Source: Candidatus Staskawiczbacteria bacterium
GTDB taxonomy: Bacteria; Patescibacteriota; Minisyncoccia; Minisyncoccales; Staskawiczbacteraceae
Length of the DNA stretch: 64,000 nt
Direction: 5' to 3'
NCBI GenBank assembly: GCA_026395295.1
Contig: JAPLYZ010000007.1
Coordinates: 66,518 to 130,517 of the forward strand
Position numbers and translations under genes: made by a program. Every line of letters begins with the position of its first letter. Positions within the stretch are counted from its first letter, which is position 1. Below, piece after piece: positions 2,682 through 60,969 of this stretch. The notes below the pieces were generated by a model. That model worked only from the letters and a program-made list of their open reading frames with translations. It was not told where the DNA came from and searched no databases.

Positions 2682-4635
2682 AATAAATCAGTTACTGATA
2701 ACCGGCATTACCCCTTATTTTTTAGATAAGGAGTTTTTTTGGTTTCAAGAACATCTCCAAGAGGTGTTAGACGCGAGACATTCTCAAAATTTTTTTGAGG
2801 ACAATATAATTTTTTTGGAAAAGGATCACAGTTTCCAATTTTCACAATTTTTGAGAAAACTTGATGAAATGGGGTATGAAAGAGTTTTTAAGGTTTCTGA
2901 CCCCGGCGAATTTTCCCAACGTGGAGGCATAATTGACGTTTTTCCCATAAATTTAGCTAATGCTGTGCGTTTAGATTTTTTAGGAAACGAGGTTGATGGC
3001 ATAAGTCTGCTACCTATAAAAATTGACGACGAAAAAAAGGCAAAGGAACTGTTAAAGAAAAAATTAAAATCGCAAAAAATATTCTCTGAATTAAAAGGAT
3101 TAAAACCGGGAGATTATCTTGTACATCTTGATCACGGAATTGGAAAATTTACAGGCATAGAAAAATTTCAAACCGCAATTTCTGTGTTTCAGGAGTACTA
3201 TGTTCTAGAATACGCGCAAGAAGACAAGCTTTATGTGCCAGTTGGCTTAGAAAGAAAATTATCGAGGTACGTGGGGTTCCATGACCCAAAAATTTCGAGG
3301 CTGGGGTCTTCTCTGTGGCAAAAAACAAAACGAAAGATAAAAGAAGATGTTGAAAAATTAGCCAAAGAACTCTTGCAACTGTATGCGCAAAAAGAGATTA
3401 CAGAAAGAGCCCCTTATATAGAAGACAAGGAGCTTGAATCGCAACTTAAGTCCGGATTTATATTTCAAGAAACTCCCGACCAAACTCAAACGATAGAAGA
3501 TATTAAAGACGATTTACAGAAAACAAAACCAATGGACAGAATTGTTTGCGGAGATGTTGGATTTGGCAAAACAGAAGTGGCATTGAGAACGGCTCTGCTG
3601 GCTTGCGCCAACAACAGGCAAACAGCCCTAATATGCCCAACCACAATTCTGGCAAATCAGCACTTTAACTCTTTCAAAAAAAGGTTTGAGAAATTACCGG
3701 TCAGGGTTGCCTTGCTTTCAGGACTCCAGACAGCTTCAGAACAAACGAAGATTATAAAAGATTTGAAAGACGGTAAAGTAGACATTTTAATCGGCACCCA
3801 TCGACTTTTGTCAAAAGACGTGGATTTTAAAAACTTGCAACTTTTGATAATTGATGACGAGCAGAAATTCGGCGTTAAACAAAAAGAAAAACTAAGGCAA
3901 ATGAAAACAAGCTTAGACGTCTTGAGCCTGTCGGCCACCCCAATTCCCCGAACAATTTATTTAGCTCTTTCTTCTTTTAAAAACATAAGCCTAATGCAAA
4001 CTCCGCCAATTGGCAGACAGACTATAAAAACAGAAGTTTTGCCGTACAGTGAAAAAGCAATAAAAAAAATAATTGGCGCAGAGCTGAAAAGAAAGGGCCA
4101 GGTTTATTTTTTGCACAACAGGGTCCAAACTATTGAGGCGAAAGCAAAAGAGTTGGAAAAACTCTGCCCTAAATCGAAAATCAGTTTTATACACGGAGGA
4201 ATGCCAGAAAAAAAATTGATAAAAATAATGGACGAATTTCAAAAAGAAAAAACAAACGTGCTGGTTGCCACAACAATTATTGAGAACGGATTGGATCTGC
4301 CAAACGTAAATACAATTATAGTGGAAGACGCCACGCGACTTGGACTTTCTCAGGCGCACCAGATACGAGGCAGAGTTGGCAGGTCTGGAACGAAAAGTTT
4401 TGCTTACTTTATGTTCAGCGAAAAATCGCTGACGCCTTTGGCGAAAGAAAGGTTGAAGGCCCTGGAAGACGCGCAGGAATTGGGAGCCGGGTACAGAATC
4501 GCGATCAGAGACATGGAATTGAGGGGCGCCGGGAATATTTTAGGCAAAGAGCAATCAGGCGCCATAAACAGAATTGGCTTAAATTTATACAGCCAGATGA
4601 TATCAGAAGCAGTGGAGAAATTTAAGGTCTCCTGA
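2665..4635 (+). CDS. mfd: transcription-repair coupling factor, N-terminally short form
   Basis: Helicase motifs GDVGFGKTEVA, DEQKFGV, SATPIPRT and a C-terminal Mfd TRCF-like segment. Only about 290 aa precede motif I, so the UvrB-homology region appears absent. Confidence 0.8.
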   Translation: MNTISEINQLLITGITPYFLDKEFFWFQEHLQEVLDARHSQNFFEDNIIFLEKDHSFQFSQFLRKLDEMGYERVFKVSDPGEFSQRGGIIDVFPINLANAVRLDFLGNEVDGISLLPIKIDDEKKAKELLKKKLKSQKIFSELKGLKPGDYLVHLDHGIGKFTGIEKFQTAISVFQEYYVLEYAQEDKLYVPVGLERKLSRYVGFHDPKISRLGSSLWQKTKRKIKEDVEKLAKELLQLYAQKEITERAPYIEDKELESQLKSGFIFQETPDQTQTIEDIKDDLQKTKPMDRIVCGDVGFGKTEVALRTALLACANNRQTALICPTTILANQHFNSFKKRFEKLPVRVALLSGLQTASEQTKIIKDLKDGKVDILIGTHRLLSKDVDFKNLQLLIIDDEQKFGVKQKEKLRQMKTSLDVLSLSATPIPRTIYLALSSFKNISLMQTPPIGRQTIKTEVLPYSEKAIKKIIGAELKRKGQVYFLHNRVQTIEAKAKELEKLCPKSKISFIHGGMPEKKLIKIMDEFQKEKTNVLVATTIIENGLDLPNVNTIIVEDATRLGLSQAHQIRGRVGRSGTKSFAYFMFSEKSLTPLAKERLKALEDAQELGAGYRIAIRDMELRGAGNILGKEQSGAINRIGLNLYSQMISEAVEKFKVS

Positions 4636-8850: not shown

Positions 8851-8934
8851 GCCGAGGTGGCGGAATTAGCAGACGCACGGGACTCAAAATCCCGCGACAG
8901 CAATGTCATGAGGGTGCAACTCCCTCCCCCGGCA
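8851..8934 (+). tRNA. tRNA-Leu (anticodon CAA), type II with long variable arm
   Basis: Cloverleaf folded by hand: acceptor GCCGAGG/CCCCGGC (one A-C mismatch), anticodon loop CTCAAAA, long variable arm. The T-loop TGCAACT is non-canonical with G at position 55. Discriminator A; CCA not encoded. Confidence 0.75.
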
Positions 8935-25405: not shown

Positions 25406-26854
25406 TTATGGTAAAGTTAGAAAGTTTTTGAATTGCCAGGGGTCTGGGTCGGGCGTGCTTGCCGGGTTTTCCGGAAAGAAAACCGTCCTGCTTTTCAGAG
25501 GGGTCCAATCGCTTGCTTTGGAAATTAAATTTCCCAAATATGGTTTGGCTACTTTTAAAACATAATCGTGTGGCAAGTCTTCGGGCGAGCAAAGTCCTTT
25601 TTTAGGATTATCAATCATCCATTCTATGGCCCCCAAAAGTCCGGCGGCAACCTGCAAAGTTGTGGCATTCTTACCCTTAATTATTTTTCTTGTTTGCTCA
25701 ATGCTTAAAGAAGTTCCTGTCCACCAAGAATTGTAATCGTGCCCCATTAAAAATGCCCCCAAAATGTCTTTGCCCGAAGTTATGTCATCTGTCATTGTTC
25801 TTAATTTCGGTTGCATTATATATCGCCGGGCTTTTAATTCCACCAAAGACGAAAGAGCTTCGTGACAAGGCATATAAACATAATGAACAGTTGGTCTGTA
25901 AATGGCTTTTCCGCTTTGATCTCGCACAGTAAGCCTGTCCGAAATTCCAAAAGCTTCGCCGTGCCTGACAATCATTCCTTCTATTTCGCCAACCTCCGGA
26001 ACCCAAGACCTTGCCCAAGTATTTATTCCCATTCTGGCTAAAAAAATCTGGTTGTCGGGACCAATAACAGGTTTCTCGGCCAGCAGGGGCAATTCTTTTT
26101 CGTGCGTACCCCAGCCCATTTCCGAGGGAGCTGTTCCTTCTTCGTGAAACCCCGGGATAGACCAAGTGTTCACAAACTCATTTACCTGCTTTGGTTTGTT
26201 TGTAATTTGAGTATCTCTCTCCGAGCAATGAATAACCTTCACCCCAAGTTTTTGCGCCAGCCTCGGAAAATCTTTTTTATTTTTATATTCAAGCAATTCT
26301 TCTAAGTCTTTGCCTAGAATCTTTTTATCTTTGACCAGCTTGTCGGCAATATCCAGCAATCCCTTTTTCACAAAGTGCGATATTAACCCCGGGTTTGCGC
26401 CGTGGTCAATAACTGCTGTGGCTGAATCTTTCGGCCAAGTTTTTATCATTTCCCTCAAGCTCATCTGACGGGAATGCAAAGTTTTGCTGTAAACAGTCGG
26501 CAAATTGTTGGTGTCCCATAATTCCACGGAAGTATTTATGTATAAATTGTTGTGGTCATGGCACCATTTTATAATGTCATCTGCTCCTATGTTCCAGGCA
26601 AGGTCTATGACAAATCCGTTATCGCCGGCGTACTTTGTCATCACAGCATTTAAATTCTCTGGAGTAATCCTTTTTCTGTAATACTTCAAGCCCTTTTTTG
26701 TAAAAGGTTTCAATTGCTCCAATTTATTTTCAAAATCAATTATGGTTATATTTTTCAATGGAACATCCACGTGTTTTAAAAATAGAGGAAGCGTGCACTG
26801 TGCGACTGCGCCATAACCTAAAATTGTAATTTTTCCGTTAAATTTTTTGGACAT
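25406..26854 (-). CDS. hss: homospermidine synthase
   Basis: Aligns along its full length with bacterial HSS (ITILGYGAVAQCTLPL; DHGANPGLISHFVK; ERDTQ...VNTWS..GF; C-terminal DPWQFKNFL). Confidence 0.85.
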   Translation of the reverse strand: MSKKFNGKITILGYGAVAQCTLPLFLKHVDVPLKNITIIDFENKLEQLKPFTKKGLKYYRKRITPENLNAVMTKYAGDNGFVIDLAWNIGADDIIKWCHDHNNLYINTSVELWDTNNLPTVYSKTLHSRQMSLREMIKTWPKDSATAVIDHGANPGLISHFVKKGLLDIADKLVKDKKILGKDLEELLEYKNKKDFPRLAQKLGVKVIHCSERDTQITNKPKQVNEFVNTWSIPGFHEEGTAPSEMGWGTHEKELPLLAEKPVIGPDNQIFLARMGINTWARSWVPEVGEIEGMIVRHGEAFGISDRLTVRDQSGKAIYRPTVHYVYMPCHEALSSLVELKARRYIMQPKLRTMTDDITSGKDILGAFLMGHDYNSWWTGTSLSIEQTRKIIKGKNATTLQVAAGLLGAIEWMIDNPKKGLCSPEDLPHDYVLKVAKPYLGNLISKASDWTPLKSRTVFFPENPASTPDPDPWQFKNFLTLP

Positions 26855-26855
26855 T

Positions 26856-28046
26856 TTATTCGTTTATGTGAATAATTTTTGCAGGAGGAAAACCATTAAA
26901 ATTTGTTGCTGACGCATTCGAATATGCGCCGATGTTCTCCTGATAAATCAAATCTCCGTCTTCTAATTTTGGCAAAAAAGCATCTTTTGAATTGTGTATG
27001 TAAGAATTTTCCGAAAGTTCGTCTAAGCCATCGCAGGTCTGGCCAAAAACTTTGCACTTGATTTTTTCACCTTTTTTGAATGTTTCTAGGTTTGGTTCAA
27101 AATGGTCATATATAATAGCTGAAAAAGTATGATAAACTCCATCATCAATATGATAACAAGGCATCTCGGTTGAATGTTTCGCAAGAACAACTTTTGAAAT
27201 TGCTGTTCCGGCATTAGCCACCAAAAACCTGCCGGGCTCGGCAATTATGGCTGTATTTTCTCTTGGGAATAATTTATCGAGTTCTCTGTTTATCATTTCA
27301 GTCAATTTTCCAAAACAATTTTCATTTCCATTATACTGCGCGGGGAATCCTCCTCCTATATCCACGATTTTTATGGCGTGGTCAGAAGTTCTTTTTTCCC
27401 CAATTTCGAGTCCTCTTTTTTCCGCTTCCGCAAAAACTTCCGCCACAGACCTTAGCGCTTTTATAAAATTATCCGGATTATTGCATTGACTTCCGGCATG
27501 AAAACTTATGCCCTCAACCTCCAACCCTTCTTTGATTGTCTCCCCTATCAAATCCACCGCCAATTTTGGGTCAATACCAAATTTATTGGAAAATTTTACA
27601 ACAGAACCTTCGTCGCAAACCTTCAAACGCAATAATAATCCCGCATCGGGGCAGTGCTTTTTTATTTTTCTCATTTCTTCAACGCTGTCGTAAGTTAAGA
27701 GCGGTTTGTATAAATTCAAAACATGCAAAGAGTCGGGCTTCTTTACCGGATTAGCATAAATAATCTTATTCCAAATAAAATCTTGCAAGGCTTCCGGCTC
27801 GAGATACTTTACCATATTAAAAACAAGATTGAATTCAGGAAGCGATGCCACGTCAAAGCTGGCTCCCATGTCATACAAAGTTTTTATTATCTTCGGCTCT
27901 GAATTTGCCTTAACGGCAAAATAAACCTGCACCCGAGGAAGTTTTTTTCTAAACTCTGAATAATTTTTTCTTATTTTATCGTGGTCAATAACCAGCAACG
28001 GAGTCTCGTGCTCGTTAACTAAACTTTCAATTTTTTTTCTGTCCAT
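26856..28046 (-). CDS. ornithine/lysine decarboxylase (PLP-dependent, alanine-racemase fold)
   Basis: FAVKANSEP...GASFDVAS PLP-Lys motif; GGGF motif. Confidence 0.8.
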   Translation of the reverse strand: MDRKKIESLVNEHETPLLVIDHDKIRKNYSEFRKKLPRVQVYFAVKANSEPKIIKTLYDMGASFDVASLPEFNLVFNMVKYLEPEALQDFIWNKIIYANPVKKPDSLHVLNLYKPLLTYDSVEEMRKIKKHCPDAGLLLRLKVCDEGSVVKFSNKFGIDPKLAVDLIGETIKEGLEVEGISFHAGSQCNNPDNFIKALRSVAEVFAEAEKRGLEIGEKRTSDHAIKIVDIGGGFPAQYNGNENCFGKLTEMINRELDKLFPRENTAIIAEPGRFLVANAGTAISKVVLAKHSTEMPCYHIDDGVYHTFSAIIYDHFEPNLETFKKGEKIKCKVFGQTCDGLDELSENSYIHNSKDAFLPKLEDGDLIYQENIGAYSNASATNFNGFPPAKIIHINE

Positions 28047-28164: not shown

Positions 28165-28743
28165 TTAAGTCTTTCTTTTTTTAGAAGCTATTTCCAACAA
28201 TTTCTGCTTAGCATGCTCGTATTCCCCGTCAAGAATGGCTTTTATCTCCGGCTCAATTTTATCCCAATCTCTCGCCAGTTTTTCGGCAAGTGTTTGGTAC
28301 ACCGCCACCTCTAAAATTCCCCGGTCTTCCACCTGGACCCGCCACAGCTCCTCCAAATTTCCGAAATGTTCTATTGCGTCCGCCGCCGCTACACATTTCG
28401 CTTCAATTGTTTGAAATGCAATCCTTTGGCTTCCACGATGAGAATAAACGGCGCTTATTATTGGTCCTATCAACGGCAAGGGACATCCGCACTTAAGCAG
28501 AATCGGCCCAGCTTCTTGCGCTCCGGTAATATGATGGTTTTCCTTTCCATATTTCGCCGCTCCCACGTCGTGAAGAAGACCTCCTGCTTCAGCGACGAAC
28601 TTATCTCCCTGCATTTTTCCCGCAAAGTCTTTTGCATATTGCGCGACCCGTTGAGCGTGCCGCCAAATAAAAAGTTTGTAGTGAGGGCTGGACAGGTAAA
28701 TCGGTTTTACTTCCCTTCTTATTCTTCTGATGACGCATTCCAT
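28165..28743 (-). CDS. HD-domain phosphohydrolase
   Basis: H..HD motif (LLHDVG); higher GC than neighbouring genes. Confidence 0.6.
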   Translation of the reverse strand: MECVIRRIRREVKPIYLSSPHYKLFIWRHAQRVAQYAKDFAGKMQGDKFVAEAGGLLHDVGAAKYGKENHHITGAQEAGPILLKCGCPLPLIGPIISAVYSHRGSQRIAFQTIEAKCVAAADAIEHFGNLEELWRVQVEDRGILEVAVYQTLAEKLARDWDKIEPEIKAILDGEYEHAKQKLLEIASKKRKT

Positions 28744-28878
28744 AGTCAGCTCCTTTCTGTAAATTATTTTTTAATGTGCATTGAATTTATATTACATCGT
28801 TAAAACAATTTGTCAACAAACCGCACCCAAAAAATCGGCTCAAATGATGGAAATAATACGCCTTAGTCTCAGAGTCAA

Positions 28879-28914
28879 ATACGTTTTATTCTGCGGTCGC
28901 AGAATTCAGCGTAT
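28879..28914. repeat. palindromic repeat family P36 copy (imperfect arms)
   Basis: ATACGTTTTATTCTGCGGTCGCAGAATTCAGCGTAT, upstream of the HD gene. Shares the CGCCTTAGTCT flank with the 25344 copy. Confidence 0.65.
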
Positions 28915-28990
28915 CTGATATTTTCAATTGTTAATTGATTTATTTTGCTTTCTTAAAAATCAAATTTCCATTTATTGCTTTCGATCATAT

Positions 28991-29400
28991 AAAAAAATGC
29001 GCACGTCCTTTTGGTCGTGCGCTTTGTGCCAACTTGGAATGTTTCATCCTTCGCGAGACAGTCGGCGTGCCTATGGTCAGAAGACCATCCGTTGTTTCCC
29101 ATAAAAGCGTGAGCTCATACGGGTGATAAAATCCCTGTTCTCGGGGGTACAGCGGCGATTCCCTAAAAAGCAAAACCACTTTGTTCCTTGCGCATCTGTC
29201 CCTACCTAGTATGGAGGTATCAGCGCAAAATTCTGCTTTTCTGAAGAACAGCACCCACATGGCAGCACGGGTTTTCCCTTTTTATACCCGAAGGGTTCCC
29301 CGTGTGTGGGCTTTGAGCATACCAGGATTTTAGCGGGCGATGATATATCTCATAGGCATATCCTTTCTTGTCAAAGAGCAAACCATTTGCTCCGTACCTT
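28991..29400 (-). ncRNA. unassigned structured ncRNA candidate (GC-rich island, no plausible ORF)
   Basis: About 50% GC in a roughly 37% GC genome. Candidate promoter TTGACA -N17- ATTATA near 29430 on the minus strand. Clean terminator GCGCACG..CGTGCGC + T7 at 28991-29022. Only spurious ORFs cross it. Confidence 0.35.
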
Positions 29401-29484
29401 TATAATAATCCTAATCCCTATTTTGTCAAAACAAAAACCCAAAAGAATAACTTCGGACTTTGTTTCTAGAAAAATAAACCTTTT

Positions 29485-31146
29485 TTATTGGACGATGCCG
29501 CCGCCGGAGTTGGCAAAGTCATCTGGCAAGCTTGTGGTTATTCCAGAATCTTGGGCCGTGATAGTTGTATTTGTAAACTGGTTTTCTCCTGAAATTTGAG
29601 CCTGACCTATAAGAGGCGCCTGTGATCCTTTTTGCGAATTGGTCGGAGTAAGAGAAACTTGGAAAGAAAGAGAAATTGGGTCACCGGTCACCCCTGTTCC
29701 AGCCTGCACATCGCCAACTGACCAAACAATTTCGCGACTGGCTGAATCAAAAGAAAAATTTGATAACTCGTCCTGCGGCATAATTTTTCCGGTCAAACTT
29801 ACATTTGCCGGCAGAATTGCTTTTAACTTAACGTTTTTGGCGTCGCTGAAATAATTTTTAATTTCCCAATTTATTGTGTAAGTGGTTGCTTTGCCTGCCT
29901 GCGGAGGAATTGGTCCGGAATTGGAAATGTCGGAGCTCTGATAATATGCTCTTTGAGAAATCACCAACCCTGAGCTTACTTTTATTGTGAACTTTTGGGT
30001 TATCTGAGAAATATTTACTTCGTCAGTAATAACAGTGTTACTTGCGTCAATCGCCGACGAACTCCAGTTGTCTTTCACCTTCACGTTAAAATCAACTTCG
30101 CCTTGCTGCTGAACAGCCAAATGACTTAACTGCGAAGACTGGCTGTGGTCCCAAATAATCATGTTATCATTTTGCTGGACTTGACCTCCCGCCTCGGCTT
30201 GCAAAGTAGACAAATCCAAAGCCGGGCTGTCAATTTTTGCCACCAAAAATAAATCTTCAAAAGGGGTTGACCCAACATTGGTGAAAAAAATCTGATAATG
30301 AAGGGTCTCGCCGGGTTTGGCAACATAAGAAGATGAACTATTAACCAGCTGGGAAATAAACAGCAACGGCTGTATTGCCTGCGCAGTAACGCTGGCTTCT
30401 TTCACAACAATAAAACTTCCGTTCTGCCACATTCCCAGTTTCGCCGAAAAAATTAAACTCTGGCTGGTAGCTGCCGAAATTCTGCCCGAGATTGTAATTC
30501 TTCCTCCTTGCGCCTTGTTCAAGGTTTGCAGTTTCCATTCTAAATTATCCAAAGACTTCGGGTCAGATGATATAAAATCAAAACCGGGCATAGGGTCAAC
30601 TTTTATGCTCAAATTTTCCAGCGGATAGTTTACATTGGAAAAATAATTAATTGAGTACTGTAAATTTTTTCCTTGCTCCACCTTAGTTGGCAAATCGAAA
30701 TCCAAAGTAATAGGGCTTGCATCAATTTTAGTTATAAAAGTTGTGTCCGACTCGTAGGTGGCTGTTATATTTTTGGGCACATAAGAAAGCGATGCTTTGG
30801 CGGTTTTCAAATCTCCATCTTTGCCCAAAAGTCTGGCTTTAATTTTTACCGACTCCTGACCTCCAGGATATATATCTTTTAAACTCTGCACAAACATTGT
30901 CCTGCTGTCTTCGGTCAGAGAGTTGTCCGGCAAAATAAAAACTAACTTCGCTTTCTCTAAAACAAAGTTGCCGTTATTTTTGTATTGCACTGTATATTCT
31001 ATCTCGTCTCCTATTTTGGCTGTGCTGGGCCCAAAAATTTCCAGCCTCAAAATTTCTTTTGAAAACATACTGCTCTTGTAATACAAGAACACCGCCAACA
31101 CCACTATTATAATTATAAACAAAATTAAAAGTATTTTTTTCGCCAT
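29485..31146 (-). CDS. cell-surface protein with N-terminal TM anchor and DUF11-like (CARDB-like) repeats
   Basis: Signal-anchor followed by repeated beta-rich modules (Y.I...N.G pattern). Confidence 0.55.
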   Translation of the reverse strand: MAKKILLILFIIIIVVLAVFLYYKSSMFSKEILRLEIFGPSTAKIGDEIEYTVQYKNNGNFVLEKAKLVFILPDNSLTEDSRTMFVQSLKDIYPGGQESVKIKARLLGKDGDLKTAKASLSYVPKNITATYESDTTFITKIDASPITLDFDLPTKVEQGKNLQYSINYFSNVNYPLENLSIKVDPMPGFDFISSDPKSLDNLEWKLQTLNKAQGGRITISGRISAATSQSLIFSAKLGMWQNGSFIVVKEASVTAQAIQPLLFISQLVNSSSSYVAKPGETLHYQIFFTNVGSTPFEDLFLVAKIDSPALDLSTLQAEAGGQVQQNDNMIIWDHSQSSQLSHLAVQQQGEVDFNVKVKDNWSSSAIDASNTVITDEVNISQITQKFTIKVSSGLVISQRAYYQSSDISNSGPIPPQAGKATTYTINWEIKNYFSDAKNVKLKAILPANVSLTGKIMPQDELSNFSFDSASREIVWSVGDVQAGTGVTGDPISLSFQVSLTPTNSQKGSQAPLIGQAQISGENQFTNTTITAQDSGITTSLPDDFANSGGGIVQ

Positions 31147-32148: not shown

Positions 32149-33147
32149 TTACTGCGAGACGAACCCCGACGCAGAGCCGAAGTTGTCGCTCGGGCTGGAC
32201 ACATCGTCCGCGCCGAACTTGGCCTCGACGCTGAAGCCGAAGTACGGAGCGTGGCCGAACCGACCATCGCAGTCATCGGAGAATTCGTCGCCGGCCATGT
32301 CCATGTCCAGCTCTTCCCAGCGAACGAGGCGTTCCGGATGAACCAGAACGATTGAGCCTCCAGCGACGCTGGTAAGGCCGTACTCGCCCTTGGTGAAAGA
32401 TTCGCGTGCGAGACCGACGCAGTATCCGCCCCAACGCTTACCGAGCTGGCAAGCCTGAATACGGAAATCGCCTTGCTGTTGGTCCCGCATCTTCTGCATA
32501 ACTTCCCGAGTGTGCTGAGAGACGCGGATGTGAGCCGCGTCAATCTGGTTTTCGCGCCAGTTCGTGAACGAACGCGATTCGGCAATCTTCTGAAAGATGA
32601 GCTGCAGCGCCCGGCAGTACATCTCGGCGGGGTCTTTGACCTCGGGAAAATACTTTCGGGATAGCGCATCCTCCCACGGAACAAGGAATGCTCCTTCCAC
32701 CCAATTAGGTAGTGCGATTTTCTGCTGCACGTCCCTGTAGTAGCGAAACGCAGGTTCGGGGTCGAACCCGGGAAAATGCCGAAGCATCACCTCTGCCTGT
32801 TGCTGCATGGATTTGGGACCCTTGTACTCGCGCGGATAGTCGTAGGCCGGCCGAACCTTCTTACCCGCGTACTTGCTCTGTGGAGCGCGATGCTCCTCTA
32901 TCCAAGTAGCGATGTGTTCGGAGAGGCCAGGCGTGTCGTTAATACGCTGAGCTTCCCCTTCTGTACCATCTGACAAGCCGGCTTTATCGTAAGCGGCTGT
33001 CACGATTGACACGAACTTGAGACCTTTCGAGTCCCGTGATGTGACTGACGGAGCCAATTTTTGCATCGGAGCCATCCTTTCTACCGCGTTAAACGCGGTT
33101 TTCAATGTGCGTGTTGCGAATGCCCCGCAACAGGGCGTCCTAAACAT
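32149..33147 (-). CDS. hypothetical protein on a GC-rich (about 58% GC) foreign-looking segment
   Basis: Sharp GC and codon-usage shift (GC3-rich codons) confined to the ORF body. Putative extended -10 TGnTATAAT at 33166-33176 (minus strand). Terminator hairpin + T-run at about 32033-32079. Start is ambiguous (33147 or 33075). No recognisable family. Confidence 0.5.
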   Translation of the reverse strand: MFRTPCCGAFATRTLKTAFNAVERMAPMQKLAPSVTSRDSKGLKFVSIVTAAYDKAGLSDGTEGEAQRINDTPGLSEHIATWIEEHRAPQSKYAGKKVRPAYDYPREYKGPKSMQQQAEVMLRHFPGFDPEPAFRYYRDVQQKIALPNWVEGAFLVPWEDALSRKYFPEVKDPAEMYCRALQLIFQKIAESRSFTNWRENQIDAAHIRVSQHTREVMQKMRDQQQGDFRIQACQLGKRWGGYCVGLARESFTKGEYGLTSVAGGSIVLVHPERLVRWEELDMDMAGDEFSDDCDGRFGHAPYFGFSVEAKFGADDVSSPSDNFGSASGFVSQ

Positions 33148-42958: not shown

Positions 42959-43405
42959 ATGAAGATATTTAGTGAAAATAAAAAAGCGGGGTTTGATTAT
43001 GAAGTCCTGGAAAGGTTTGAGGCAGGGCTGGTTTTGTTTGGCCAAGAGGTAAAATCCATAAAAACCGGACATATAAATTTATCTGGAGCTTACGTGAGTT
43101 TGGCGTCAGGCGAGCCTTTTTTGGTGGGGGTAAAAGTGCCTCCCTACCAGCCAAATAATGCCGGAGCCGGCTACAACGACGAACGTCAAAGAAAGCTTCT
43201 TCTAAACAAAAAAGAGATTGATTATTTGCAAGGAAAGACAAAAGTTAAGGGTTTTTCGCTTATACCCTTGAAAGTTTACGAAAAGAGTGGTAGGATAAAG
43301 CTCGAATTCGGATTAGCCCGCGGTAAGAAGAAATTTGATAAAAAAGAGAAAATAAAAAAGAGAGACGTGGAAAGAGAGGTTAATCGCGAATTATCAAGGG
43401 AGTGA
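42959..43405 (+). CDS. smpB: SsrA-binding protein
   Basis: FDYEVLERFEAGLVLFGQEVKS... canonical SmpB sequence. Confidence 0.9.
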   Translation: MKIFSENKKAGFDYEVLERFEAGLVLFGQEVKSIKTGHINLSGAYVSLASGEPFLVGVKVPPYQPNNAGAGYNDERQRKLLLNKKEIDYLQGKTKVKGFSLIPLKVYEKSGRIKLEFGLARGKKKFDKKEKIKKRDVEREVNRELSRE

Positions 43406-43751
43406 ATGTTTCGATGGATAGTTTTTTTGAGTAAGGCAAGTTGAGCTTTCTTGGGGCTCGTTAATATCCGGGAAAAAACATAATTGCTAATTTATTTAAC
43501 TTTAATAAGCAACCAGCGTTAGCTTTCGCTTAATGCTGCATCCTTACCGTTGACTCCTAATAAACGGACCAAGGGTGTTATATTATTAGGATAGGCATTT
43601 CATTTCTCCGGTGACTTGCCGAAACTAAGGAGATAAGGCGTTAAAAATTTTGTTAATTCTTTATTTAACGTTCGAACACCAGAATTAACTAAACTTGTAG
43701 AATTGCTTTCAAAAACTTTTCAGACGCGAGTTCAATCTCGCCACTTCCACA
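43398..43751 (+). ncRNA. ssrA: tmRNA (ssrA)
   Basis: 5' GGGAGUGAAUGUUUCGAUGG resembles the tmRNA 5' end. 3' tRNA-like end GACGCGAGTTCAATCTCGCCACTTCCA, with acceptor GGGAGTG/CACTTCC pairing. Tag ORF 43486-43533 encodes ANLFNFNKQPALAFA*. Overlaps the smpB stop codon. Confidence 0.7.
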
Positions 43752-43782
43752 CTTCGACAAACTCAGTGTAAACCAAAAAACT

Positions 43783-45792: not shown

Positions 45793-47570
45793 TACTTAAA
45801 AAATTCTAATAATTTTTCTACGGACAACGTGTTTATTATATCTGCTTTTTCTGCCCAGCCACGATGTGCTTGACCAATTCCATATTCCATCAAATTCAAC
45901 TGTTCTTTATTGTGGCTGTCTGTGTTTATTATCATCTTTAATCCATGCGTTTTGGCTCTTCGAATGTTGAAACCATTCAGATCCAATCTCAAGGGCGAGG
46001 AATTAATTTCTAAAATTGTGCCATTTTCCTTGGCAACTTCTAAAATTTTATCAAAATCCATTTGATATTCGTCTCTTTTTCCAATCAGCCTCCCGGTTGG
46101 ATGGCCAAATATATCAACATTACGGTTCTTTATGGCTTTTATTATTCTGGCTGTCATTTTTTTCTTTTCCATTTTCATACCTGAATGCACGCTGGCAATA
46201 ACATAATCTAATTTTTCTAAAATTTCGTCCTTCGCATTAAGCGATCCGTCCAACATTATGTCTGCCTCGCACCCATGCAACACTCTAAATTTCAAATTTT
46301 GTTTTTTAAATTTTGCATTTAGCTCTTCTATTTTTTTATGCTGTTTTAGAATTTCTTTTTCGTCTAGCCCATTGGTCACTCCCAAAAATTTCGTATGGTC
46401 GGAAATTCCCACATATTCATAGCCTAAATCCATTGCCGAACGAACCATTTCTTCAATTGAATCTTTTCCGTCGGAAGCAACCGTGTGGCAGTGCAGGTCG
46501 CCCTTTATATCTTTTTGTTTAATCAAAACAGGCAACGAACCGTTTAAAACAGCTTGAATTTCTCCATCGTCTTCGCGCATTTCCGGAGCTACAAAAGAAA
46601 GTCCAATTGCTTTATAAACATCTTCCTCGGTTGCCCCCGCTATTTGTCTTGCTCGCCCTGAGCCTGTCGAAGGGTTCCCTTCGAAAACTCCGTATTCAGA
46701 AAGTTTTAACCCTTTCTCAATGGCAATTTTCCGCGTGCTAATGTTGTGTTCCTTGGAGCCTGTAAAATATTGTAAAGCCGAGCCAAAACTTTCTCTTTTC
46801 ACCATTCTCAAGTCCACATCAAAGCCAGCTTTAAGCCTTACAGAGCATTTTGTAGAACCTTCTGCCCAAATTTTTTCAACCTCGGGCAAGCTAACAAAAA
46901 AATCAGCTGTTTTTTTAGGATTTTCCGACACCACTAAAATATCGATGTCTCCAATTGTCTCCTTCTGTCGTCTTACCGAGCCGGCAACGCTCACTTCTTT
47001 TATTTCCTTTCTTGCCCTTAAGCTCTCCTCAATAATTTTTACAGTCGGCATAATATCTCCAAGCAAAAACCTGCCTTTACTCCTCTTCAAAAATTCCAAC
47101 CCTTGCAAAATATTCTGCTCTGTTTTTTCTCCAAAACCAAAAAGCGGAGATATTTTATGGGCTTTAGCGGCTTTTCCCAAATCTTTCAAATCTTTAACTC
47201 CCAGTTCCCGATAAAGAACTTTTATTTTTTTAGGACCAAGGCTTTCAACCCTCAACAACTCGTCAACCTTCAGGGGTAACTTTTTTTTGAGCTCTTCCAA
47301 GCTTTTTATTTTTCCGCTTTTTAAATATTCCTCAATAGCTTTGGCAATTCCTTCGCCAACTCCCGGAATTTCTTGCAAACCTTTAATTCCTTTGCTTCTG
47401 TAAATTTCGCCAACATCCTCTTTCCAGTTATCTAAAGATAACGCCACTTTTCTGTAAGCATAGGGCTTAAAATCCACGCCTTCTATTTCCAAATAATCAG
47501 CCATTTCAAAAAATATTTTAGATAATTCCTGATTTTTCACCCCGTTAGAAGTCTTCTTTTTATTTTTCAA
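45792..47570 (-). CDS. polX: DNA polymerase X family protein with C-terminal PHP domain
   Basis: HhH motifs, pol-beta nucleotidyltransferase GSVRRQKETIGDIDILV, PHP domain DLHCHTVASDG. Confidence 0.85.
   Translation of the reverse strand: MKNKKKTSNGVKNQELSKIFFEMADYLEIEGVDFKPYAYRKVALSLDNWKEDVGEIYRSKGIKGLQEIPGVGEGIAKAIEEYLKSGKIKSLEELKKKLPLKVDELLRVESLGPKKIKVLYRELGVKDLKDLGKAAKAHKISPLFGFGEKTEQNILQGLEFLKRSKGRFLLGDIMPTVKIIEESLRARKEIKEVSVAGSVRRQKETIGDIDILVVSENPKKTADFFVSLPEVEKIWAEGSTKCSVRLKAGFDVDLRMVKRESFGSALQYFTGSKEHNISTRKIAIEKGLKLSEYGVFEGNPSTGSGRARQIAGATEEDVYKAIGLSFVAPEMREDDGEIQAVLNGSLPVLIKQKDIKGDLHCHTVASDGKDSIEEMVRSAMDLGYEYVGISDHTKFLGVTNGLDEKEILKQHKKIEELNAKFKKQNLKFRVLHGCEADIMLDGSLNAKDEILEKLDYVIASVHSGMKMEKKKMTARIIKAIKNRNVDIFGHPTGRLIGKRDEYQMDFDKILEVAKENGTILEINSSPLRLDLNGFNIRRAKTHGLKMIINTDSHNKEQLNLMEYGIGQAHRGWAEKADIINTLSVEKLLEFFK
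46656..46685. repeat. intragenic 21-nt element (CCCTGAGC-CT-GTCGAAGGG) in polX, encoding NPSTGSGRARQ
   Basis: This copy is extended into a perfect palindrome TCGAAGGGTTCCCTTCGA. Confidence 0.65.
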
Positions 47571-54095: not shown

Positions 54096-54168
54096 GAACC
54101 ATTAGTGTCCCCGAGCTGATTTGAACAGCTATTTTTTCCTTCGGAGGGAAATGTTCTATCCAATTGAA
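54096..54168 (-). tRNA. tRNA-Arg (anticodon CCG)
   Basis: Acceptor GTCCCCG/CGGGGAC, D-arm GTTC..GAAC, anticodon loop CTCCGAA, T-arm AGCTG-TTCAAAT-CAGCT, discriminator A. Confidence 0.8.
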
Positions 54169-54182
54169 CTACGGGGACGAAA

Positions 54183-59016: not shown

Positions 59017-60969
59017 TTGTATATGAAGTTCCAACTAAAATCAAAATTCCACCCCACCGGCGACCAGCCAAAAGCCATAAAACAACTGGTGAAAAATTTA
59101 GAATCTGGAGTAGAAGCCCAGGTGCTTTTAGGCGTAACCGGCAGTGGGAAAACCTTTACTATGGCAAAGGTAATTGAAAAAATGCAAAAACCAACTTTGG
59201 TTATTTCCCCCAACAAAACCTTGGCGGCCCAGCTTTACCAAGAATTCAAAGAGTTTTTTCCCGACAATGCGGTCCACTATTTTGTTTCTTACTACGATTA
59301 CTATCAGCCCGAGGCCTACATCCCGCAATCAGACACATATATAGAGAAGGATGCAAAAATCAATGAAGAAATTGACAGGTTAAGGCATGCGGCGGTCCAA
59401 GACGTTACAACAAGAAAAGATGTTATTGTGGTTGCCTCGGTTTCCTGCATTTACAACATTGGCTCGCCTGAAAACTATGAGAATATCTCGTTGGAAATAA
59501 AATTAAAGCAGGGAATTAAAAGAAAAGATTTTTTAATTTTGTTGAGTAATCTGCAGTACCAAAGAAATGACATTGACTTCAAGCCCGGGTTTTTCCGCGT
59601 TCGCGGAGATATTGTTGAAATTTACATTGTCACTGGCGAAAAAATCCTAAGAATAGAATTTAACGGCAATATAATAGAAAAAATTTCTGAAACAGAACCC
59701 GGCTTAATTTCCAGCTACAAGCTACAAGATAAAAGCTACAAGCTCTTCCCTGCTCATTTCTGGGTAACTCCGCAAGACAAAGTCAACATCGCCATGAATA
59801 ATATAAAATTAGAATTGGACACAAGATTGAAAGAACTGAAAAACCAAAATAAATTACTGGAAGCGGAAAGATTGGAGCAAAAAACAAGCTATGACTTAGA
59901 GATGCTTAAAGAAACCGGCTGGTGCCATGGCATTGAAAATTATTCAAGCCACATGGAATTCAGAAAACCAGGTGAGGCGCCGTTCTCTTTGGTTGATTAT
60001 TTCGGATATTTTAATCCTAAGAACTTTTTGCTTTTTATTGATGAGTCGCACATTTCGGTTTCACAAATTCGGGCTATGTCAGTCCAAGACAGAATAAGAA
60101 AACAAACTTTAATAGACTTTGGATTCCGCCTGCCCTCGGCAATAGACAACAGGCCCTTAACTTTCAGCGAGTTTGAAGAAAGACAAAACCAAACAATTTA
60201 TGTGTCGGCCACTCCGGCCAATTTTGAACGGCAAAAAGCCGGTGAACATATTGCAGAACAGCTGATAAGACCAACCGGTTTGTTGGAGCCGTCAATTGAA
60301 ATCAGAAAAACCGAAAATCAAATTAAAAACTTGGTAGAAGAAATAAAAAAACAAGTTTCTAACAAACACCGAACACTGGTTGTTACCCTAACAAAACGAC
60401 TGGCAGAAGAAATTTCCGACTATTTAATTGAGAAAGGAATCAAAACTCAATACTTGCATTCGGAAGTTAAAACAATGGAACGGCCAGAAATTTTAAAAAA
60501 TCTTAGAGAAGGAAAATATGATGTGCTGGTTGGAATAAATTTGTTAAGAGAGGGCATTGATCTGCCCGAAGTTTCGCTGGTGGCCATATTAGACGCTGAC
60601 AAAGAAGGATTTTTAAGAAATGAAACAACATTGATACAAACAATGGGCAGGGCAGCCCGCCACATAAATGGCAGAATAATTTTGTATGCCGACAAAGAGA
60701 CTCTCTCAATGAAAAACGCCATTAACGAAATAAACAGAAGGAGAAAAATCCAGGAAACCTATAATAAAAAAAATAATATAACTCCTAAAACAATTATTTC
60801 GGGCATACGAGATTGGAGTTTCTCAAAAAAAGAAGAAGTTGCCGATGAGTTCGGCTTTGTGAACGACAAAAAACTTTTAGAAAAAGAAATGAAATTAGCG
60901 GCCAAAAATTTAGACTTTGAACGCGCCGCCGAACTCCGCGACCTAATTGAGAAACTAAAAACAAAGTAG
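59017..60969 (+). CDS. uvrB: excinuclease ABC subunit B
   Basis: GVTGSGKTFT Walker A, beta-hairpin region, C-terminal UVR domain (FERAAELRD). Confidence 0.9.
   Translation: MYMKFQLKSKFHPTGDQPKAIKQLVKNLESGVEAQVLLGVTGSGKTFTMAKVIEKMQKPTLVISPNKTLAAQLYQEFKEFFPDNAVHYFVSYYDYYQPEAYIPQSDTYIEKDAKINEEIDRLRHAAVQDVTTRKDVIVVASVSCIYNIGSPENYENISLEIKLKQGIKRKDFLILLSNLQYQRNDIDFKPGFFRVRGDIVEIYIVTGEKILRIEFNGNIIEKISETEPGLISSYKLQDKSYKLFPAHFWVTPQDKVNIAMNNIKLELDTRLKELKNQNKLLEAERLEQKTSYDLEMLKETGWCHGIENYSSHMEFRKPGEAPFSLVDYFGYFNPKNFLLFIDESHISVSQIRAMSVQDRIRKQTLIDFGFRLPSAIDNRPLTFSEFEERQNQTIYVSATPANFERQKAGEHIAEQLIRPTGLLEPSIEIRKTENQIKNLVEEIKKQVSNKHRTLVVTLTKRLAEEISDYLIEKGIKTQYLHSEVKTMERPEILKNLREGKYDVLVGINLLREGIDLPEVSLVAILDADKEGFLRNETTLIQTMGRAARHINGRIILYADKETLSMKNAINEINRRRKIQETYNKKNNITPKTIISGIRDWSFSKKEEVADEFGFVNDKKLLEKEMKLAAKNLDFERAAELRDLIEKLKTK

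Follow-up and report, generated by a model that had tools for sequence, protein, structure and literature searches.

Introduction

Large structured bacterial RNAs without an assigned job are, to our knowledge, few, and several of the large orphans have since turned out to be ribozymes or components of protein-RNA machines. The OLE, ROOL, GOLLD and raiA motif RNAs, classes with hundreds to thousands of members across phyla, are the described systems closest to the element that is the subject of this work, a GC-rich intergenic region of approximately 400 nucleotides (nt) in a 64,000-nt stretch of the genome of Candidatus Staskawiczbacteria bacterium (contig JAPLYZ010000007.1, positions 66,518 to 130,517 of the forward strand; the whole stretch is referred to as the window). 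Like these RNAs the one predicted here would be a stand-alone molecule, several hundred nt in length and made up of many helices with invariant nucleotides at the junctions; its GC content is above the genome background and its function is not readable from sequence. It differs in that no match is obtained in Rfam 15 at E≤10 and in having two members from one lineage of the candidate phyla radiation (CPR), and while OLE has the partner gene oapA no conserved partner gene was seen here. Classes of the OLE, ROOL, GOLLD and raiA type were found as long GC-rich intergenic regions, as related in two earlier reports (PMC6429828, PMC8723152), and the present RNA came to light in the same manner.

An initial annotation of the window had offered a lineage-specific structured RNA, a 6S-like RNA or a riboswitch leader of the neighboring HD-domain gene as readings of the region. 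The first of these is borne out by the analysis described below, according to which the candidate RNA is conserved, non-coding and constrained in structure, with a predicted promoter and terminator of its own. We hold with good confidence that the region is a stand-alone minus-strand gene for a structured non-coding RNA (ncRNA), present in two Staskawiczbacteria genomes and outside every Rfam family; as judged from these two sequences it is a new and rare family of such RNAs. The work provides a seed alignment for this family along with a secondary structure tested in two sequences. Its weakness is rarity: there are two members, and the family may be a narrow lineage curiosity.

Results and Discussion

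The intergenic region

The host is a Candidatus Staskawiczbacteria metagenome-assembled genome of the CPR/Patescibacteria, the flanking proteins being annotated so in NCBI, and the window is ordinary chromosome, with RecO, glycyl-tRNA synthetase (GlyRS), polyamine genes, uvrB, transfer-messenger RNA (tmRNA) and two tRNAs. A 740-nt gap extends from the stop of a gene for a DUF11-domain protein of 553 amino acids (aa; 29485-31146, minus) to an HD-domain gene (28165-28743, minus). Over the approximately 400 nt at its center (29000-29399) the GC content is 0.475-0.51 as compared to 0.384 for the whole window, so that the GC-rich region in an AT-richer genome reported initially is found where it had been placed. 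That report had also seen no credible open reading frame (ORF), and we agree: all six frames are broken by stops with the exception of one of 91 codons, in which GC content is flat by codon position (0.49/0.47/0.48). When this frame and all stop-free six-frame pieces were combined into a single query, no match was obtained at E≤10 among 5.8 billion proteins, while tblastx against the fetched loci gave just one weak short match (E=0.025), elsewhere in loci L015/L016.

Several signals that had been annotated by eye are present. The internal hairpin with CCCGUG (CCCACACACGGG...CCCGUG...UGUGGG) is predicted with a pair probability of at least 0.96, the sigma70 promoter near 29430 on the minus strand is found at the positions listed in Table 1, and the rho-independent terminator consists, as described, of a hairpin and a U7 tract. 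The terminator stem of 7+2 base pairs (bp), with loop AAAA, carries one A/A mismatch, which is why it was missed by the terminator scanner. None of this is decisive. Minus and plus strands both fold better than shuffled sequences (z = -3.15 and -3.22, respectively), so that folding energy alone settles neither the strand nor the reality of the structure, and weaker promoter-like matches are as frequent in shuffles as in the window, so that the promoter by itself proves nothing. The case for more than chance, in so far as it can be made from sequence, is carried by a homologue and not by the window alone.

A homologue in a second genome

A single homologue was recovered by nhmmer from all of the fetched loci, at positions 3956-4336 of locus L051 (E=4.6e-40), where it occupies the same slot downstream of the conserved DUF11 gene. 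The gene order there is RecO, DUF11, a 46-codon zinc-ribbon ORF with a terminator, the RNA, GlyRS and M16 peptidase. An identical copy in an independent ENA assembly (L115) establishes that the L051 sequence is not an assembly artefact; a third contig of this organism (L117) stops before the RNA.

Window and L051 copies are 72-74% identical over approximately 340 nt, with the similarity beginning at the -10 box and ending at the U-run. At four-fold degenerate sites, by contrast, the two loci are only 38% (DUF11), 35% (GlyRS) and 32% (RecO) identical, corresponding to saturation, and identity above that of saturated silent sites shows that the predicted RNA is under purifying selection. Given tiny CPR genomes with little intergenic space, conservation at this level would mean that a 400-nt non-coding gene is being paid for. 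That the putative RNA is non-coding is established by the same comparison: the two copies have no reading frame in common, matches between their translated pieces jump frames on both strands, and in L051 no frame is free of stops.

The predicted gene also emerges as a transcription unit in its own right, neither a leader nor the 3' untranslated region of DUF11. The DUF11 gene of relatives ends in a terminator of its own, immediately followed by the next promoter, and the layout in the window is alike, the T-run of the upstream gene being followed by TTGAC just as it is behind the DUF11 gene of the relatives. The -10 region is kept in L051 (GATTAG[G/T]ATTA[T/C]TATAAA), and at the other end L051 has, in the same place, a terminator made up of an 11-bp hairpin and a U7 tract whose stem sequence is unrelated to that of the window.

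The L051 locus has features of its own that are not found in the window. The 46-codon ORF (3644-3784) is Lys/Arg-rich, with a zinc-ribbon-like CxC...CxxC pattern and its own terminator, and a perfect 16-bp hairpin (3870-3905) lies just upstream of the RNA promoter.

Secondary structure

The two copies were aligned structurally by hand, helix by helix, and the comparison shows a predicted secondary structure that has been kept through compensating changes. The copies have 90 comparable base pairs: 63 are identical, 14 differ on both sides, 11 differ on one side but can still pair, and 2 are broken; five further base pairs have been inserted or deleted as whole pairs. Where a pair that is standard in the window differs in L051, it stays standard in 25 out of 26 cases, compared to a null of 0.34 (34% of similar column pairs drawn at random remain standard; binomial 4e-11). 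Leaving out hairpin C, where the alignment was re-registered, the count becomes 18 out of 19 (binomial 5e-8). In untouched MAFFT alignments the D domain retains 100% pairing over 29 pairs, with 1 double and 3 one-sided changes, and the 3' domain 97.8% over 23 pairs, with 5 double changes; in a control with 3' partners slid by 1-3 columns 21-61% of positions are paired (35-61% for the D domain) and there are 0-1 double changes. It is the G-U pairs that fix the strand as window minus: read in this sense 88 of the 90 pairs are standard in both copies, versus 69 when read antisense. The L051 fold is -131 kcal/mol in the forward direction (z -4.1) versus -105 kcal/mol in reverse (z -2.6).

The order of helices is A-(B-(P-(C,D)))-E-F-A'-G. 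The cleanest case of covariation is hairpin E, whose 6-bp stem carries three double changes and a one-sided one (ACCAAC/GUUGGU in L051). The outer stem of hairpin C has three double changes and one entire base pair deleted, and the hairpin contains A-rich internal loops and an invariant 6-nt bulge, CUGCCA; hairpin G has two double changes, two that are one-sided and one broken pair. Helix A, which is GUGUUU/AGGCGC in L051, has three one-sided changes through which pairing is retained solely on the minus strand, and it can be extended over the AUG described below to 8-9 bp at the sacrifice of the base of hairpin F. Helices B and P are invariant except for one G-C to G-U replacement, which is compatible with the structure and gives no covariation signal. 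Invariant unpaired stretches are AAAUCCUGGUAUGCU, CUGCCA, GAACAA, CCCCGA..GAACAGGGA, AAACAAC and GUCUCG.GAAGG. A 5' hairpin seen in the window copy is lacking in L051, the window having an insertion of 26 nt at this point.

As we picture it, transcription would proceed from the promoter to the intrinsic terminator, giving a predicted RNA of approximately 400 nt in the window genome and approximately 385 nt in L051. Helix A would close the core, the nested helices B and P carrying the junction with the long hairpins C and D; hairpins E and F would come next and, after the closure of helix A, hairpin G followed by the terminator.

Table 1. Features of the predicted RNA gene (window coordinates).
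Feature	Position	Strand	Remarks
Promoter	-35 TTGACA 29429-29424; -10 TATTAT 29407-29402	minus	16-nt spacer; 11/12 positions match
Transcription start	~29395	minus	as expected from promoter
5' hairpin GGAGCAAA-UGG-UUUGCUCU	29375..29393	minus	pair probability 0.92
AAGAAAGGA	29361..29369	minus	Shine-Dalgarno-like; noted as invariant in both copies, L051 form AAGAAAGGAGGUG
Mini-ORF AUG AGA UAU AUC AUC GCC CGC UAA (MRYIIAR)	29330..29353	minus	read directly
Conserved core, ~340 nt	29028..29369	minus	aligns end to end with L051 3958-4302
Helix A, 5' strand AUGCCU	29354..29359	minus	pairs with AGGCAC 29067-29072, closing the core
Helices B (UCCUG) and P (GUAUGC), 5' strands	29317..29327	minus	inside invariant block AAAUCCUGGUAUGCU
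Helices B and P, 3' partners	CAGGG 29133-29137 (B); GCUGUAC 29147-29153 (P)	minus	
Hairpin C	29253..29311	minus	three stacked helices; pair probability 0.96-1.0
Hairpin D	29155..29252	minus	long, ~30 pairs; tip invariant CCUCC...GGUAGG; invariant bulge GAACAA
Hairpin E, CCCGUA...UAUGGG	29098..29123	minus	
Hairpin F, AUGGUC-UUCU-GACCAU	29073..29088	minus	stem invariant, loop variable; invariant AAACAAC before it
Hairpin G, GCCGACU...AGUUGGC	29028..29066	minus	inner stem GGA/UCC
Intrinsic terminator GCGCACGACC-AAAA-GGACGUGCGC (GGACGTGCGC), then A + U7	28991..29022	minus	pair probability 1.0

Proposed role

The RNA may act in trans by way of its folded shape, with a protein partner or possibly as a catalyst. 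With low confidence, and by analogy, we regard such a scaffold or catalytic role as likelier than an antisense seed or control in cis, because a closed multi-junction fold with invariant junction nucleotides resembles scaffold and ribozyme RNAs.

A number of points weigh against the picture developed so far and should be kept in mind. Two distinct sequences are known, so that all of the covariation counts amount to one pairwise comparison, and the hand alignment was in part fitted to the structure. Helices B, P, D1, D3, D4 and F show no variation and hence no covariation signal, and the middle stem of hairpin C is not in the same register in the two copies. The RNA is absent from the same slot in approximately 90 related genomes and its carriers are not nearest neighbors by DUF11 identity, ranking 26 and 31 of 119, which would make the element dispensable or mobile and a housekeeping role unlikely. 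Finally, the trans-acting scaffold is argued from shape alone, and no partner protein, target or ligand emerged from these analyses. RNAduplex predictions of targets at gene starts returned physically meaningless long-loop duplexes and were dropped.

Near the 5' end, preceding the core helices, lies a seven-codon mini-ORF. The Shine-Dalgarno-like AAGAAAGGA motif upstream of it also precedes the HD gene and ORFs at 47011 and 48716, in each case 4-10 nt ahead of the start, and the arrangement resembles the HD start region. In both copies the AUG follows AAGAAAGGA by 5-7 nt and leads into exactly seven codons and a UAA, the L051 counterpart, in the same place, being MYVMTVR. The UAA abuts helix B, where the invariant block of helices B and P opens. 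The mini-ORF is, however, the least conserved stretch of the RNA, with 9/21 nt identical and only M and R shared between the peptides, and it may be an accident of the linker between two conserved anchors. More speculatively, its translation could open the fold, and a terminating ribosome would then cover the core helices. We consider it rather unlikely, on what the sequences suggest, that the RNA is a ribonucleoprotein scaffold or ribozyme class limited to a few Staskawiczbacteria, with its fold gated by translation of the seven-codon ORF; if it were so, ribosome traffic would be coupled directly to the activity of a trans-acting RNA in a minimal-genome organism.

Comparison with known regulatory RNAs is of limited help here. 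RNAIII/hld, SgrS/SgrT and SR1 likewise combine a structured RNA of regulatory size with a real-looking translation start near the 5' end, but known dual-function RNAs encode conserved peptides of at least 26 residues and in the present case there are 7 codons with 2 of 7 residues conserved. The protein-sponge sRNAs CsrB/RsmZ and CrcZ are similar in length (~400 nt), in having their own promoter and terminator, and in their several GGA triplets, and repeated A/C-rich unpaired motifs are found here as well (GAACAA, AAACAAC, GAGAACAG). The GGA triplets of the present RNA number about ten, however, versus about seven by chance (a rough estimate), and the motifs are not borne on repeated similar hairpins.

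Could the RNA be a leader?

It may be asked whether the RNA acts in cis on the gene that follows it, as a riboswitch, a T-box-like element or an attenuator dependent on translation of the short ORF. Ribosome-binding site, start, seven codons and stop are kept in both copies with the stop at the foot of the core helices, and in both genomes an intrinsic terminator is followed by a gene on the same strand. In L051 this gene is GlyRS, 70 nt past the terminator, and synthetase genes are classic targets of leader control. Nevertheless, we think that a cis-acting leader is unlikely. The downstream genes differ, in the window an HD phosphohydrolase at a distance of 250 nt and in L051 GlyRS, and promoter-like sites lie past both terminators, at 28816..28789 in the window (175 nt past) and at 4338-4366 in L051 (TTGGAA-17-TATATT). 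The terminator stems share no sequence and inspection revealed no conserved segment upstream that could pair with both, so that an antiterminator cannot be drawn. T-box, glycine and other riboswitch models give no match at E≤10, and the mini-ORF peptide is neither conserved nor enriched in any one amino acid.

Relatives, moreover, have GlyRS and HD genes without the RNA. A search for synteny of the HD gene returned relatives that are at most 67% identical, from GTDB genomes, ENA, JGI and NCBI; the homologues were all in unrelated contexts with no similar RNA nearby, and in six other genomes no such RNA is found upstream of them. The suggestion that the region might be a riboswitch leader of the HD gene is thus not sustained: GlyRS stands downstream in L051, HD homologues do without the RNA, and the HD gene has a promoter-like site to itself. 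A GC-rich gap in L015 proved to be a frameshifted membrane-protein gene.

The HD gene itself encodes a 192-aa HDIG-domain protein (28165-28743, minus; also in L015, L019 and L021) with a GC content of 47-55%, 10-15 points above that of each host. It is never in the same neighborhood twice among the genomes where it is found.

Distribution

Searches for the RNA covered the DUF11 and HD loci of relatives, including 80 DUF11 loci fetched in one scan, and the RNA may sit elsewhere in the genomes of the relatives. In 1.16 Mb of related loci, nhmmer, with and without filters, and two covariance models recovered no copy beyond the two already known. The gap behind DUF11 is shorter than 200 nt in 61 of the 66 loci where it could be measured, and runs with filters off on seven loci with unexplained space behind DUF11 found no RNA; a match in L090 (12.8 bits) was rejected as full of mismatches. 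There is no RNA in the closest DUF11 relatives (P0026, P0027, P0029) or in P0049, and P0060 contains only identical L051 copies. The trait is patchy, which on the sequences compared is a matter of repeated loss, relocation or transfer.

The surroundings provide some context. Conservation of the 553-aa DUF11/DUF7619 'surface protein' is unusually high: more than 100 Staskawiczbacteria have it at 70-81% identity, and there are 1568 matches at E≤1e-10. Upstream, the order IleRS-x-RecO-DUF11 is stable in relatives, while downstream the next gene, after a gap of 24-150 nt, changes from one relative to another in nearly all cases. In scaffold L026 the genes ArgDC, SacDH and GlyRS come straight after DUF11; by comparison, the RNA region and the HD gene are insertions in the window. 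A rearrangement hot spot is thereby marked downstream of a very conserved surface-protein gene.

In such a setting the RNA might be part of a mobile or accessory module (defence or addiction, for example) that works with a near or distant protein, and the patchiness just described (2 of ~95 loci, with carriers that are not sister lineages by DUF11) and the ever-changing occupant of the slot both speak for this. So does the foreign look of some neighbors in the window, namely a 332-aa ORF with GC at third codon positions (GC3) of 0.66, an NYN nuclease-domain gene and the GC-rich HD gene, and so does the branching of assembly graphs at a palindrome 75 nt past the terminator. Yet the sole neighboring protein gene shared by the two copies is DUF11, present in ~90 genomes that have no RNA; flanking repeats, integrase, reverse transcriptase and transposase are all absent; and collections of phages, plasmids and viral contigs gave no match. 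On balance we find a module of this kind quite unlikely. Among the individual searches, BLAST against phage and plasmid collections found none, the 91-codon frame used as a 'protein' query on viral contigs gave no confirmed match, and exact and loop-only DNA patterns had 0 occurrences in viral contigs and 0 in JGI metagenome contigs, with the reservation that the loop-only pattern would miss L051 because its apical loop differs.

The palindrome is imperfect (21+21 nt, 28875-28918, ~75 nt past the RNA terminator). Of the Logan contigs, 15/15 that contain the exact HD protein start at 28917 and 3/3 that contain the exact DUF11 protein end at 28889, from which it follows that assembly graphs branch there in several samples; the branch point may be a structural variant or a recombination junction.

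The 332-aa ORF (32149-33147, minus) is 57% GC in a 38% GC genome, with no Pfam match and no likeness to the ORFs that fill the same slot in relatives. It is probably a recently acquired foreign gene.

Known RNA families

At gathering thresholds Rfam 15 detects nothing in the window besides the tmRNA and the tRNAs, and with permissive filters and E≤10 no family is assigned to the region or to its homologue (window 28700-29700 and 29030-29400; L051 3930-4350), the sole permissive matches in the region being fragments aligned to the terminator hairpin. The trivial outcome that the initial annotation had allowed for, a common Rfam family, can hence be set aside. Its proposal of a 6S-like RNA is likewise not upheld: 6S RNA is a rod of approximately 180-200 nt with a large central bubble mimicking an open promoter, whereas the present RNA is a branched, closed multi-helix junction of ~340 nt, double the 6S size, with no match to RF00013 at E≤10. 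Signal recognition particle RNA (RF00169/RF01854), which is marked by the helix 8 motif of domain IV, has no match at E≤10 either, and the window AAGCAG reads AAGUAG in L051; no tRNA-like element is found by ARAGORN.

Of the known families the one that deserves attention is RNase P, since a strongly diverged RNase P RNA could be expected to have much of what is seen, including a size of ~340-400 nt, high GC, closure by a long-range helix and an independent promoter and terminator. CPR bacteria have RNase P RNAs that fall below Rfam thresholds, so that a hard-to-recognise copy is to be expected; in 10 of 35 complete CPR genomes the RF00010 threshold had to be lowered to ~5 bits, and helices P12-P18 are often missing (PMC8172020). 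There is no RNase P gene elsewhere within the 64-kb window, and AAAAUCC...ACAGGGAUUUUAUC faintly recalls the two strands of P4. In spite of this we judge the identification most unlikely. RF00010, RF00011 and other RNase P models give no match at E≤10 to either copy, which for RF00010 is an effective cut-off of ~5 bits by our extrapolation from a chance match in uvrB (16.8 bits, E=0.0047). The P4 motifs GGAAAGUCC of the 5' strand and ACAGAA-CCGGCUUA of the 3' strand are absent, and the P4-like pairing has no bulged U and loses 4 of 9 pairs, those of AAAA with UUUU, in L051, where UUUU becomes AGAU without compensation. The order of helices is different as well. In class A RNase P it is P1-P2-P3-P4-(P5..P12)-P15/P18-P4'-P2'-P1', while here the would-be P4 3' strand is separated from the closing helix by two hairpins, and the P15-P18 position is empty. 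In a CPR genome, the size of RNase P and a high GC content do not by themselves make an RNA gene RNase P.

The sub-threshold RF00010 match in uvrB (59611-59722, plus, 16.8 bits) contains a perfect ACAGAACCCGGCTTA inside the coding sequence and was rejected as RNase P, the perfect motif being what produces the chance match. Low-threshold RNase P searches in CPR genomes give false positives.

Other RNAs and genes in the window

A match to the 'skipping-rope' RNA at 30975-31055 (minus; 24.3 bits against a gathering threshold of 36.7, E=0.3) falls within the 5' coding part of DUF11 and is probably due to chance. The tmRNA that had been annotated at 43398 is confirmed as a one-piece molecule at 43398-43752 (plus, 109 bits), and the tRNA genes are at 8851-8934 (plus) and 54106-54178 (minus), one of them having a long variable arm. 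At 25406-28046 (minus) a gene of the Orn/Arg/DAP decarboxylase family lies beside one of the saccharopine-dehydrogenase family, a pairing that is familiar from polyamine synthesis by way of carboxy(nor)spermidine; both genes are kept, adjoining GlyRS, in scaffold L026.

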